Source: Escherichia phage HY01. Taken from it: DNA of 64,000 nt. The position numbers and the translations under genes were made by a program. Below are positions 3,396 to 6,287 of the stretch, piece after piece (the first letter of the stretch is position 1; each line of letters starts with the position of its first letter). The notes beneath the pieces are model-generated. The model was not told the DNA's origin and did not search any database. It worked only from the letters and a program-made list of their open reading frames with translations. Where the stretch lies: the sequence record NC_027349.1. One strand, written 5' to 3'.

Positions 3396-3532
3396 AGTTT
3401 TGTGAAAAATTTTTTAAAAAGTTTTAGGGAATTCTAGGGTGGGAAGGGGCAATTAAAGGATAGGATAATATATTATAAAGGGTAGAAACTAAATGGTGCC
3501 TAGAGAGGTCCAGAAAGGTCTAGATACCAAAA

Positions 3533-3556
3533 AGCCCCAACCTTTTGGTCGGGGCT
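3533..3556 (-). terminator. hairpin AGCCCCAACC-TTTT-GGTCGGGGCT downstream of the CTS gene
   Basis: 9/10-bp stem; near-identical copy at 4091-4114. Confidence 0.55.
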
Positions 3557-3562
3557 AAAATG

Positions 3563-4036
3563 TTATTTGATTTGTTTAGCAGACCAAATGCGGTCTTTAA
3601 TAATTTTTTGGATGTCTTCAACATACTCAAGAGAGTGAGCATGTGGATTATCTTTGAAACTATAAGCGCGGGCTAACTTTTGGCCTTCGGTTTTGATTAC
3701 TAAAAGCTCTTTAAGGATAGCTTCATATTTAGCGATAATTCCTTTAACGATATTTTTTTCTTGTGCAGCTTTAGGATCTGCTTTAGGAGCAGGTTTACCT
3801 GAAGCCTTTGCAAAAGCAGCGCCAGTAGCAACTAAACTTTTCCAGGCCATACTAACTGCATTTCCCGTAAATCCTTCTGCTTTCATGTCGCGAGCAAACT
3901 GGAATCGTGATTCGTCAGAAGCATCTTTATAGGAATATTTACCCGCTGCAATGGCTGCTTTTGCGACAGCTTGAATTTCGGTGCTAGATGCTTCATTTAA
4001 CACCGCTTCATTTAAAAATTGAGCATATGATTTCAT
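3563..4036 (-). CDS. internal-protein-like capsid-packaged protein with N-terminal CTS MKSYAQFLNE|A (157 aa)
   Basis: N-terminus matches the 10-residue T4 IPII/IPIII capsid targeting sequence pattern (MKTYQEFIAE) with an L-x-E gp21-type cleavage motif; Lys/Ala-rich body; ATG and AGGAAA RBS. Confidence 0.6.
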   Translation of the reverse strand: MKSYAQFLNEAVLNEASSTEIQAVAKAAIAAGKYSYKDASDESRFQFARDMKAEGFTGNAVSMAWKSLVATGAAFAKASGKPAPKADPKAAQEKNIVKGIIAKYEAILKELLVIKTEGQKLARAYSFKDNPHAHSLEYVEDIQKIIKDRIWSAKQIK

Positions 4037-4090
4037 CTTATTTCCTGTTTTAATTCGTGGATTTAATATACTACTATATTTATACTAAAA

Positions 4091-4114
4091 AGCCCCAACC
4101 TTTCGGTCGGGGCT
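4091..4114 (-). terminator. hairpin AGCCCCAACC-TTTC-GGTCGGGGCT ending the stable-RNA operon
   Basis: stem-loop nearly identical to 3533-3556, followed by T-run on the minus strand. Confidence 0.55.
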
Positions 4115-4164
4115 AAGCCTTGCGGCAACCTTGTCGGGGTTCCACCTGCTAAGGCAAGTGTTTG

Positions 4165-4257
4165 TACGAAACGCCGGGATTCGAACCCGGTTATTAAGCA
4201 GTTGACGCTACTCAATATTTTTAAAAGGCCATATCTCGACCATATCCGAACGTTCCG
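4165..4257 (-). ncRNA. tRNA-like small stable RNA (possible T4 rnaC/rnaD-type species)
   Basis: minus strand has acceptor-like pairing CGGAACG/CGTTTCG and canonical T-arm CCGGG-TTCGAAT-CCCGG, but no standard anticodon arm. Confidence 0.4.
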
Positions 4258-4420
4258 TCAAAAACGCTACTCGGCTTACGGCAAAGATATTTCCTCGAAT
4301 CGATAATTCGGTGCGCCGTTTCTGTTGTGATAGTAAAGAATCAGAACACAGTAAAACTGTGGGAGAAACTATACTCCAGGGAACATCAGTCCGACGACTT
4401 ACCGGTAGCGACCCGGTTTC

Positions 4421-4771
4421 TTAGTATTCTTTTAAAGCATCAACCTGTTCACGACGTTTACGCCATAAATCAATTACTTCATACGCAGATTCAGCATTTC
4501 GAATTGGACGGCATTTATATAAAGACTTATGATTTTGATATTGTGTAGATAACGGAATTTTATCTAAAAGGTCTTTACGTTCAAAATATTCGTAACCATC
4601 TAAACCAAATGAACGATTTTTGAGAAATTGCCAATGACCATATTCGTTTTCGACATAAACATAATCTGCATGCTGATAAAGTAAATTAATTACACGTTCA
4701 GAAATAACAGTGTCATTATGATTAAAATAGAATGTTAAATCATGAACTACTAAATAAACATTACCTTTCAT
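4421..4771 (-). CDS. hypothetical protein (116 aa) inside the stable-RNA operon
   Basis: ORF with ATG at 4769-4771 and GTGAGGAAA RBS, starting 17 nt after tRNA-Arg. Confidence 0.5.
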   Translation of the reverse strand: MKGNVYLVVHDLTFYFNHNDTVISERVINLLYQHADYVYVENEYGHWQFLKNRSFGLDGYEYFERKDLLDKIPLSTQYQNHKSLYKCRPIRNAESAYEVIDLWRKRREQVDALKEY

Positions 4772-4787
4772 ATTTTCCTCACTTAAT

Positions 4788-4863
4788 TGGTCGAGGCAGT
4801 AGGGATCGAACCTACGACCTAGGACTTAGAAGGTCCTTGCTCTTCCTTCTGAGCTATGCCTCG
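4788..4863 (-). tRNA. tRNA-Arg (anticodon UCU)
   Basis: cloverleaf by hand folding; anticodon loop CUUCUAA; T-arm GUAGG-UUCGAUC-CCUAC; CCA encoded. Confidence 0.85.
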
Positions 4864-4867
4864 GATT

Positions 4868-4942
4868 TGGCGGACGTGATAGGATTCGAACCTATAACCA
4901 ATCGCTTAACAGGCGATCGCTCTGCCATTGAGCTACACATCC
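4868..4942 (-). tRNA. tRNA-Asn (anticodon GUU)
   Basis: hand folding: acceptor GGAUGUG/CACGUCC, anticodon stem AUCGC/GCGAU, loop CUGUUAA. Confidence 0.75.
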
Positions 4943-4946
4943 AAAT

Positions 4947-5034
4947 TGGTGGGGAGTGATGGAGTCGAACCACCCGAGTCGCAATGACAATGGATTTACA
5001 GTCCACACCGCTACCTCTACGGAATAACTCCCCA
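4947..5034 (-). tRNA. tRNA-Tyr (anticodon GUA), type II with long variable arm
   Basis: anticodon loop GACUGUAAAUC matches the bacterial tRNA-Tyr loop; long variable arm; acceptor GGGGAGU. Confidence 0.8.
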
Positions 5035-5042
5035 AATTAATT

Positions 5043-5117
5043 TGGTGGCCCTGGGTGGAATTGAACCACCATCTGGCGATTATGAGTCGCTTGCTTGAAC
5101 CTTCCAGCTACAGGGCC
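5043..5117 (-). tRNA. tRNA with CAU anticodon (Ile lysidine-type by analogy to T4 tRNA-Ile, or Met)
   Basis: acceptor GGCCCUG/CAGGGCC; anticodon loop CUCAUAA. Confidence 0.75.
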
Positions 5118-5118
5118 T

Positions 5119-5194
5119 TGGTGCTGATTGACGGAATCGAACCGCCGACCTTCTCATTACAAGTGAGTTGCTCTACCTACTGAGCTAAATCAGC
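5119..5194 (-). tRNA. tRNA-Thr (anticodon UGU)
   Basis: acceptor GCUGAUU/AAUCAGC; anticodon loop CUUGUAA. Confidence 0.8.
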
Positions 5195-5199
5195 AAAAC

Positions 5200-5289
5200 T
5201 GGCGGAGGCGATAGGATTCGAACCTATGAGTCGCCGGAGCGACTGCCGGTTTTCAAGACCGGTGCATTAAACCACTCTGCCACGCCTCC
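5200..5289 (-). tRNA. tRNA-Ser (anticodon UGA), type II
   Basis: acceptor GGAGGCG/CGCCUCC; anticodon stem CCGGU/ACCGG, loop CUUGAAA; long variable arm. Confidence 0.8.
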
Positions 5290-5295
5290 AAATAT

Positions 5296-5904
5296 TTATA
5301 TATTGTTAATTTGATTTAGAATTCTTTTTGCTTGAGTATGACTTACGCCAATATGCTTAGCATATTTAGATAATTCACCACGCTTAGAAAAATCATATAA
5401 TTTAGAAATTTCTATTCTTCTTTTTCTTTCATCCGCAGAAACTTTTGCTTCGTTTGCTTTTGCTATTTTACGTTTAGCTTCTTGAGAATGAGTTTTACCA
5501 GCAAAGCCATTCTTCATTAATCCATTTGAAGACCATCCTTTTAATTTTCCGTTAGAATGTGCCTTTTTAACACCCAATGAAATTAATTCGCGTTGCTGAT
5601 CTGTCATAGGATAATTATTTATATGGTCCCATCCACCTTCACCTCCAAGTTTTAAATTATACACATCTGGTCTATTTAAAAACTCTTCTGTGACAATATT
5701 TTTCTCGGCTTCAAGCATAGATTCTTTATCATCAAAATACTCTAATATTTCTTTAGAAAAATTTTCTATACCATATTTATCTTGGGCTCTTTTTAATAAT
5801 TTACCAGAACCCATATATCCATCATCTAAATTTTCGGTAGAATGCACACCAATATAAATTTTATTATTAATTTTATTTGTTATTTTATAAAGATAAAAAT
5901 GCAT
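5296..5904 (-). CDS. segB: GIY-YIG homing endonuclease (Seg-type, segB-like position inside the tRNA cluster); 202 aa from ATG at 5904, track start 5946
   Basis: N-terminal FYLYKITNKINNKIYIGVHS (GIY...YIG), downstream conserved R, E and N positions; basic C-terminal DNA-binding region; GGGA RBS before 5904. Confidence 0.7.
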   Translation of the reverse strand: MHFYLYKITNKINNKIYIGVHSTENLDDGYMGSGKLLKRAQDKYGIENFSKEILEYFDDKESMLEAEKNIVTEEFLNRPDVYNLKLGGEGGWDHINNYPMTDQQRELISLGVKKAHSNGKLKGWSSNGLMKNGFAGKTHSQEAKRKIAKANEAKVSADERKRRIEISKLYDFSKRGELSKYAKHIGVSHTQAKRILNQINNI

Positions 5905-5950
5905 ATCAGTCCCTAATAAAGAACTGAGCGTCTCACGACGAGTCATAAAT

Positions 5951-6024
<74 letters not shown>

Positions 6025-6029
6025 AAATT

Positions 6030-6116
6030 TGGTGCGAGAAGTGGGACTCGAACCCACAAGGAAATCATTCCGCAGCATTTTAAGTGCTGTGCCTTTACCA
6101 ATTTGACCATTCTCGC
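6030..6116 (-). tRNA. tRNA-Leu (anticodon UAA), type II
   Basis: acceptor GCGAGAA/UUCUCGC; anticodon stem CAGCA/UGCUG, loop CUUAAAA; long variable arm. Confidence 0.8.
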
Positions 6117-6117
6117 G

Positions 6118-6190
6118 CTGGGAATAAAGGACTTGAACCTTTGCATCCTGGAATCAAAATCCAGTGCCTTACCAACTTGGCTAATTCCCA
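6118..6190 (-). tRNA. tRNA-Gln (anticodon UUG), CCA not encoded, 1 nt from tRNA-Leu (dimeric precursor arrangement)
   Basis: acceptor UGGGAAU/AUUCCCA; anticodon stem CUGGA/UCCAG, loop UUUUGAU. Confidence 0.8.
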
Positions 6191-6287
6191 ATTATTAACA
6201 AAGGCTCTCAAACAAGAACCCTTGATGATAGAGGGTATTAATCAGTGCGGTATGAGTTAATAATAACAAATAATTCTTAAAGCATAT

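Follow-up and report, generated by a model that had tools for sequence, protein, structure and literature searches.

Predicted orthologues of the T4 species 1 and species 2 RNAs, the former probably an oversized cloverleaf, at the distal end of the tRNA operon of Escherichia phage HY01

The window analysed here is a stretch of 64,000 nucleotides (nt) from Escherichia phage HY01 (NC_027349.1), and the part of it under study, positions 4165-4771, is the distal end of a T2-type transfer RNA (tRNA) operon in Tequatrovirus. All genes discussed lie on the minus strand, where the order is tRNA-Arg, an open reading frame (ORF) of 116 amino acids (aa), rnaD, rnaC and the terminator of the operon (Table 1). 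Nine tRNAs were identified at 4788-6190 by ARAGORN and Rfam, the last of them being tRNA-Arg(UCU). Over 4080-4800, identity is 100% with Escherichia phage PEC04 and 98-99% with many other Tequatrovirus genomes, and 761 phage records match this region. Homology leaves little doubt that the segments 4303-4165 and 4424-4310 are the orthologues of T4 rnaC and rnaD, respectively, and the ORF is the same gene as the 'trna.2 ORF' of T2L. All findings are already known in kind, the two RNAs from T4 (species 1 and 2) and the ORF from T2 (trna.2), and none of them is a discovery.

The T4 reference annotates rnaD ('species 2 RNA', 119 nt) and rnaC ('species 1 RNA', 139 nt) directly after tRNA-Arg, followed by a terminator. 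The rnaC copy of HY01 is 98.6% identical to that of T4 (NC_000866 70908-71046) over its full length (137 of 139 nt, i.e. two substitutions only) and 99.3% identical to that of RB69. It occupies the same place as in T4, last in the tRNA operon, with the same trailer on its 3' side, and the terminator, which begins 50 nt past the end of rnaC (4114-4091), aligns with the T4 counterpart. For rnaD, matched by nhmmer with E = 4e-37, the features shared with the T4 copy (NC_000866 71053-71171) are the 5' hairpin, the AAGUCGUC..UCCCUG core, the closing stem followed by ACC, and the location directly upstream of rnaC. Here the identity is 96% over the 5' 50 nt and 93% over the 3' 27 nt, whereas the middle of about 40 nt has diverged; the T2-type middle of HY01 is also found in Phapecoctavirus and Certrevirus. 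In addition, T4 rnaD begins 1 nt after tRNA-Arg, whereas in HY01, as in T2L and RB69, the 351-bp ORF intervenes. A preliminary description of the locus, made from the sequence alone, had likened it to the small stable RNAs beside the T4 tRNA genes, a resemblance that turns out to be stronger than supposed, namely orthology. Its boundaries have to be redrawn, though. That is, the RNA unit it placed at 4165-4257 is actually the 3' two-thirds of rnaC, and the stretch 4258-4420, in which it suspected a second small RNA, is indeed non-coding and does hold one, but is made up of the 5' 46 nt of rnaC (4258-4303) plus rnaD.

The Rfam covariance search that had been proposed as a check gives neither RNA a family. 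No family for rnaC or rnaD was returned when gathering scores were applied to the whole window and a limit of E = 10 to 4050-4800; besides noise below threshold, the only match was to tRNA-Sec, also below threshold (16.6 bits, E = 2.4, gathering score 47), and seven related loci gave nothing besides tRNAs. At the same E limit, 4050-4800 contained no match to the transfer-messenger RNA (tmRNA) families or to YrlA (RF02553), a bacterial Y-RNA-like family, and ARAGORN found no tmRNA either.

Table 1. Features at the distal end of the HY01 tRNA operon (window positions; nt numbers are those of the respective RNA)
Feature	Position	Strand	Basis
tRNA-Arg(UCU), encoded CCA; upstream boundary	4788-4863	-	ARAGORN; Rfam tRNA, 68.1 bits
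Shine-Dalgarno GAGG of the 116-aa ORF	4777-4780	-	read directly from sequence
116-aa ORF (351 bp); T2L 'trna.2 ORF', RB69ORF150c, PHROG 3355	4421-4771	-	primers, PHROG match, position
rnaD, predicted orthologue of T4 species 2 RNA, T2-type variant	4310-4424	-	alignment to T4 rnaD; 19-sequence family alignment
rnaD hairpin P1, ACCGG-GUCGCUA-CCGGU (nt 8-24)	4401-4417	-	fold; covariation of two pairs (ABPW7, PM2)
rnaD closing stem, 5' strand G(U)CGUCG (nt 27-33)	4392-4398	-	pairs with 4313-4318
rnaD apical hairpin CACAGU-UUU-ACUGUG, T2-type middle	4347-4361	-	fold prediction
rnaD closing stem, 3' strand CGGCGC (nt 107-112), then ACC	4313-4318	-	family alignment
rnaC, predicted orthologue of T4 species 1 RNA, 139 nt, probable cloverleaf-like tRNA mimic	4165-4303	-	homology and consensus structure
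rnaC acceptor stem, 5' strand CGAUUCG (nt 2-8)	4296-4302	-	pairs with 4167-4173; covariation
rnaC arm I (nt 9-78), AGG/CCU helix and long hairpin, includes CGGAACG at 4257-4251	4226-4295	-	pair counts
rnaC arm I apical loop UUGACG (nt 43-48), putative loop-loop partner	4256-4261	-	pair counts, helix 6
rnaC arm II (nt 87-112), 10-bp stem, loop CGUCAA	4192-4217	-	8-9 of 10 pairs compensatory
rnaC arm II loop CGUCAA (nt 97-102), other putative loop-loop partner	4202-4207	-	pair counts, helix 6
rnaC T arm CCGGG-UUCGAAU-CCCGG (nt 114-130)	4174-4190	-	fold and pair counts
rnaC acceptor stem, 3' strand CGUUUCG (nt 131-137), then U-ACA at 4166-4163	4167-4173	-	covariation
Intrinsic terminator of the tRNA operon, 10-bp stem with 7 G-C pairs, then T run	4091-4114	-	terminator scan; aligns with the T4 terminator after rnaC

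The structure of rnaC is given by neither the T4 record nor Rfam, and was derived here from homologues gathered by BLAST, by a pattern scan of IMG/VR (which added nine loci) and by nhmmer. The sources were Tequatrovirus, Mosigvirus (RB69), Gaprivervirus (VR7), Kanagawavirus (CIP9, IME523, Kosakonia 305), Karamvirus (UFV01, KaAlpha), Gelderlandvirus (Melville), Mosugukvirus (PM2) and Marfavirus (VAC36, PWKp18), the last of which lies outside Straboviridae. RNAalifold applied to 16 rnaC sequences gave a four-way junction of 42 pairs, 26 of which show compensatory changes. In this set 97% of the cells are paired, a value matched by none of 500 shuffles and dropping to about 40% when the partners are slid by 1-3 columns. 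A second set of 15 homologues yielded 92.6% paired cells and compensatory changes in 31 of 49 pairs, and the full 139-nt sequence folds at -50.2 kcal/mol (z = -4.55), with 0 of 200 shuffles as good. We consider it very probable that rnaC is a 139-nt oversized cloverleaf, consisting of a terminal acceptor stem, a T arm and two arms unlike those of tRNA.

The acceptor stem is stacked directly on the T arm, as in tRNA, while the D/anticodon region is replaced by the two long arms. At its third pair, the T4 group has A-U and all others (n=11) have G-C. The stem comprises seven positions, including two otherwise invariant U.U pairs; this tandem corresponds to U-A/U-A in PM2, where all pairs of the acceptor are Watson-Crick (AGGUUCG/CGAAUCU) and U-CCA comes next. 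The tail reads U-ACA in T-even phages and U-CCA in the Marfavirus and PM2 homologues only. The canonical T arm already noticed in the preliminary description is present and is kept in the consensus, with a middle pair that is U-A in eight sequences, G-C in six and A-U in one. Helices 2-5 of arm I are 90-100% paired, with compensatory changes in 16 of 22 pairs. Moreover, the apical loops of arms I and II, UUGACG and CGUCAA, are exactly complementary, are paired in 98.9% of cells and change jointly from A-U to G-C in Marfavirus, so that we read them as a putative loop-loop lock between the two arms. The motif GAGUAGCGU occurs twice in rnaC, at nt 32-40 (4272-4264) and nt 91-99 (4213-4205), and the loop of the rnaD 5' hairpin, GUCGCUA (4412-4406), is nearly complementary to it; this could reflect an internal duplication or a contact between rnaC and rnaD.

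The acceptor helix drawn in the preliminary description, CGGAACG/CGTTTCG, was different. Both heptamers do exist, at 4257-4251 and 4173-4167, but their pairing has to be rejected. That is, although the helix is possible in 11 of the 16 sequences, it is paired in only 84.8% of cells, with 17 unpaired cells and no compensatory change, and it fails in the Kosakonia and KaAlpha homologues, in that of locus L012 and in Marfavirus. The CGGAACG columns sit instead in a covarying hairpin helix of arm I that is 100% paired, with five of six pairs compensatory. Since it is the 5' strand of the conserved acceptor, and not CGGAACG, that marks the mature 5' end, rnaC is not 93 nt but 139 nt long, the length at which the T4 RNA is also annotated. 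The 3' 94-nt piece does fold as drawn earlier (-30.8 kcal/mol, z = -2.78, equalled by 2 of 200 shuffles), and automated tools reproduce this misfold, calling the 3' 94-95 nt of rnaC a long tRNA: in GenBank record MK327940 (phage G29), a tRNA-Lys(ttt) of 94 nt coincides exactly with window 4257-4164 (locus L026, 774-867), and ARAGORN gives a 95-nt tRNA-Met on the Karamvirus homologues (L004, 1554-1648; L013, 8491-8585). The sub-threshold tRNA-Sec match of Rfam rests on the same rejected helix. In HY01 itself, neither ARAGORN, which found nine tRNAs in the window, nor the Rfam tRNA model calls a tRNA in 4165-4424. The linker that follows the CCU strand (nt 76-86, window 4228-4218) has the anticodon-loop-like form C-U-NNN-A-A, and its T4-group version CUUUUAA equals the anticodon loop sequence of tRNA-Lys. 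An anticodon reading was nevertheless rejected, as the triplet varies by lineage (UUU here and in PM2; CUU, CAU, UAC, UUG or UAU elsewhere) and is stemless in the conserved fold. Many other records put a 'hypothetical protein' over rnaC and rnaD.

For rnaD, a family alignment of 19 rnaD-like sequences was assembled, all 19 of which share AAGUCGUC, UCCCUG, GGCGC and the closing stem. The RNA begins with a hairpin and continues as a long rod, whose middle varies by lineage, to end in ACC. In T-even phages the 5' hairpin stands ahead of the closing stem and ACC(A) behind it, T4 encoding ACCA and HY01 ACCG. The innermost pair of the closing stem is G-C in 12 of the 19 sequences and C-G in the other 7. 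The middle exists in at least four lineage-specific versions; 13 of the 29 pairs predicted for the T2-type fold show compensatory changes, and the same rod shape is predicted for the T4-type group. Phapecoctavirus ABPW7 and Certrevirus PBES02 and POP17 have exactly the same stem in the apical hairpin of the T2-type middle, but their 3-nt loop is UUA or UCA. This hairpin was flagged as terminator-like by the scan, but is internal to rnaD.

All rnaC- or rnaD-like copies that were found are located within a cluster of tRNA genes or at its end, and on the same strand as the tRNAs. In two phages, Karamvirus KaAlpha and Melville, the space separating tRNA-Trp from tRNA-Gly is taken up by the rnaC homologue. 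Outside Straboviridae, the tRNA clusters of Marfavirus carry both rnaC-like and rnaD-like elements, and Phapecoctavirus and Certrevirus carry rnaD-like elements with the same middle segment as HY01 (coordinates of the elements outside Straboviridae: L018 956-1060 and 1496-1647; L005 1497-1615; L022 1175-1292; L023 1175-1292). This distribution suggests that rnaC and rnaD modules may have been exchanged between phage families. An exact-pattern scan for the 3' half of rnaC found no occurrence in 185,579 bacterial and archaeal genomes, and a cellular origin of rnaC was discarded on this basis.

The ORF between tRNA-Arg and rnaD is a real gene. As the preliminary description had it, the ORF lies directly after tRNA-Arg and has a good ribosome-binding site: the GAGG is located 8 nt past the 3' end of the tRNA and 5 nt ahead of the ATG (4771-4769), i.e. 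the ORF starts 16 nt past the encoded CCA of tRNA-Arg. At the other end, the last codon and the stop codon overlap the first 4 nt of the homology-defined 5' end of rnaD. The ORF-specific T2L primers #24 and #25 (PMC2330249) match 4741-4769 and 4429-4453 with one mismatch each, which identifies it as the T2L trna.2 ORF. It also matches PHROG 3355, which has no assigned function, over its full length (E = 8.5e-55), and is 67% identical (about 72% in DNA) to RB69ORF150c at the same position in RB69; T2L trna.2 ORF, RB69ORF150c and PHROG 3355 are the same gene in the same place, with no difference of substance. The differences from RB69 are distributed over the three codon positions as 25/18/51, and the ORF is therefore under protein-level selection. 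It was found once per record in 424 phage records and was not found in T4 positions 67,000-75,000. More distant homologues lie after the last tRNA of the cluster in Melville (after tRNA-Arg), UFV01 and KaAlpha, and near the cluster in PM2. The T2L trna.2 ORF (EMBL AJ880101) is described as a gene of unknown function that disappears upon replacement of the T2L region through SegB homing from T4 (Brok-Volchanskaya et al. 2008, PMC2330249).

That the ORF has no recognizable domain, as stated earlier, holds for the searches made here. Pfam returned DUF2654 alone, below threshold (E = 0.043); a word-indexed protein search found seven close relatives, and a full HMMER scan of 1.84 billion representatives gave eight proteins and no remote homologue. 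The AlphaFold model, with a predicted local distance difference test score of 68, had no Foldseek match in the PDB at E up to 0.001, and matched uncharacterized proteins of T4-like phages alone in BFVD. An argument for nucleic-acid binding from charge fails, the isoelectric point being 6.5. We infer only that the ORF is an accessory gene linked to the tRNA operon, the 5' end of its mRNA being created, in our own reading, by 3' processing of tRNA-Arg. A late-promoter-like sequence, TATAAATG, is located within the ORF at 4519-4512 (minus strand), about 95 nt upstream of rnaD.

Returning to rnaC, its partial likeness to a canonical tRNA lies in the seven-position acceptor that is continuous with a 5-bp T stem, in the UUCGAAU loop, and in the discriminator followed by CCA in some lineages. 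Unlike a tRNA, it has neither a D arm nor an anticodon arm but two long kissing arms, its acceptor contains U.U pairs, and in T-even phages its tail is ACA and not CCA. With the tRNA-like domain of tmRNA it shares an acceptor formed by the ends of the molecule, but it lacks the tag reading frame of tmRNA.

What is known of expression comes from work on T4. There, the tRNA region is the source of both transcripts (PMC3014915). A time-resolved transcriptome classes RNAC and RNAD as late RNAs, in agreement with a Northern blot that detected RNAC in infected cells (PMC9697503). According to PMC2330249, citing Broida and Abelson, a single precursor of about 1.75 kb covers the tRNAs and the species I and II RNAs and ends after the species I RNA, and the region is non-essential. 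On the strength of that account, it is probable that rnaC and rnaD are excised from the tRNA-operon transcript in HY01 as well. Both RNAs would be cut from one long transcript ending at the terminator, and we infer that they may owe their stability to the acceptor/T minihelix, which the machinery that processes tRNAs would handle like one of its own substrates; this would mean RNase P-type 5' cleavage and 3' trimming. A species 1 precursor ('p2Sp1'), RNase F and self-cleavage also belong to the background of this RNA, and were not used as evidence.

The reading of rnaC with the best support is a tRNA mimic that does not decode and is released from the tRNA operon by processing. Taking identity, fold, excision and a trans-acting mimic together, we give this explanation a probability of roughly 55%. 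The last component is the most tentative: it is possible, though by itself short of an even chance, that rnaC acts in trans by occupying a tRNA-recognizing protein, which might be a nuclease of host defence or an enzyme that processes or modifies tRNAs. Specificity would come from the locked arms, and any advantage would depend on the host and could be done without in laboratory strains. A broader version, which we consider rather unlikely, is that rnaC and rnaD are two mobile structured-RNA families that travel with the tRNA clusters of unrelated large myoviruses (Tevenvirinae, Marfavirus, Phapecoctavirus, Certrevirus), rnaC serving as bait for a tRNA-directed host factor. Its acceptor/T 'top half' would carry or receive a CCA end, and the 'bottom half' locked by the kissing loops would be the specific bait, e.g. 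against an anticodon or variable-loop nuclease of an anti-phage system. If true, this would explain why rnaC is dispensable in laboratory strains yet nearly invariant.

Several points weigh against the mimic and the structure on which it is built. Sequences of the T4 group are about 99% identical, so that covariation within the group cannot exclude an alternative fold, and the support for the loop-loop pairing amounts to one covariation event plus invariance. The extreme conservation of rnaC could come in part from recent horizontal exchange, e.g. SegB-driven homing (PMC2330249). Furthermore, the mature RNA ends in HY01 derive from the T4 annotation alone, in which the 5' end of rnaC lies one nt (U) upstream of the first acceptor pair and the 3' end, GUA, corresponds neither to CCA nor to a discriminator; the involvement of RNase P or of a CCA enzyme is therefore conjectural. 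Neither RNA has been tied to any partner by experiment, and their functions are listed as unknown in reviews (PMC3014915) and also in PMC9697503 and PMC12685909.

The main alternative is that rnaD and rnaC are cis-acting processing or stability modules, i.e. structured spacers that guide or insulate endonucleolytic processing and shield the 3' end of the transcript from exonucleases, in which case the stable RNAs would be by-products without a function in trans. Their invariable location between or after tRNA genes on the same strand fits this well, as do the freely variable middle of rnaD and the dispensability of the region (PMC2330249). In ABPW7, KaAlpha and Melville the ends of the RNAs even abut the neighbouring tRNAs, so that processing of the neighbours would define them. 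This alternative leaves unexplained, however, why the loops CGUCAA, UUGACG and GUCGCUA and the AAGUCGUC..UCCCUG core are invariant across phage families, why the loop-loop pairing covaries, and why rnaC is 99% conserved (99.3% between HY01 and RB69) beside an ORF that is about 72% identical in DNA; besides, many phage tRNA clusters are processed without such elements. We regard cis-acting modules as doubtful, while still the strongest competitor.

That rnaC and/or rnaD are small RNAs acting in trans, through base pairing, on the mRNAs of host or phage to regulate them appears improbable. The two are abundant late RNAs (PMC9697503), the variable middle of rnaD could be a seed region, and a 2025 study found a convergent single-nucleotide polymorphism in rnaD as a T4-like phage adapted to a semi-permissive host, an adaptive change that has been read as regulatory (PMC12685909). 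Nearly all conserved nucleotides of rnaC are nevertheless engaged in helices or in the loop-loop pairing, leaving little conserved single-stranded seed; no target is known, and no trans-acting small RNA has been characterized in T4 (PMC3014915). Still less can be said for decaying tRNA-gene remnants without function. The tRNA-like T arm and acceptor lacking an anticodon arm, the location of arm II where a class II variable arm would be, and the non-essential nature of the region are all compatible with decay, but dozens of compensatory substitutions keep all helices in several genera and in two or more phage lineages that are unrelated. Such upkeep is not expected of a pseudogene, and the covariation therefore strongly disfavours this reading. 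Weakest of all is a functional unit of 93-94 nt (4165-4257), tRNA-like or even a class-II-like tRNA-Lys(UUU), which the pair counts given above make scarcely credible.

Some features of the surroundings deserve mention. The tRNA set, in which Met, Tyr and Asn are present and Pro and Ile absent, is of the T2L and not the T4 type. Eight of the nine tRNAs score 59-74 bits with the Rfam tRNA model, whereas tRNA-Tyr (4947-5033) is weak (29.7 bits, gathering score 29). Between tRNA-Gly and tRNA-Ser there is a 216-aa ORF resembling GIY-YIG/NUMOD3 homing endonucleases (5296-5946, minus strand); a 2026 paper has linked SegB-type nucleases at the tRNA locus to tRNA-Tyr amplification against Septu defence (PMC13096335). 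Upstream of the tRNA cluster there is a sequence like a MotA box, ATGCTTTA, with its start at 6286. On the other side of the operon, a 157-aa ORF (3563-4036, minus strand; PHROG 2280, no assigned function) is absent from T4 at the corresponding spot, and is flanked by a 35-nt direct repeat of the operon terminator (3524-3558 and 4082-4116, 94% identical). It is preceded by a late-promoter-like TATAAATA that starts at 4084, exact copies of which also start at 5300, just before tRNA-Ser, and at 5623. The protein encoded by the 157-aa ORF has the N-terminus MKSYAQFLNE-A, which is similar to the leader that targets T4 internal proteins to the capsid.

Few unexplained products of T4 have been known for as long as the species 1 and 2 RNAs, which pose a question that is 50 years old. 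Annotation pipelines label rnaC and rnaD 'hypothetical protein', 'tRNA-Lys', 'tRNA-Met' or nothing at all. The practical value of the analysis lies in a correct annotation of 4165-4771. For the biology of these RNAs, the fold supported by covariation, the distant homologues that end in CCA, and the copies in tRNA clusters beyond the T4 family offer handles for experiments.

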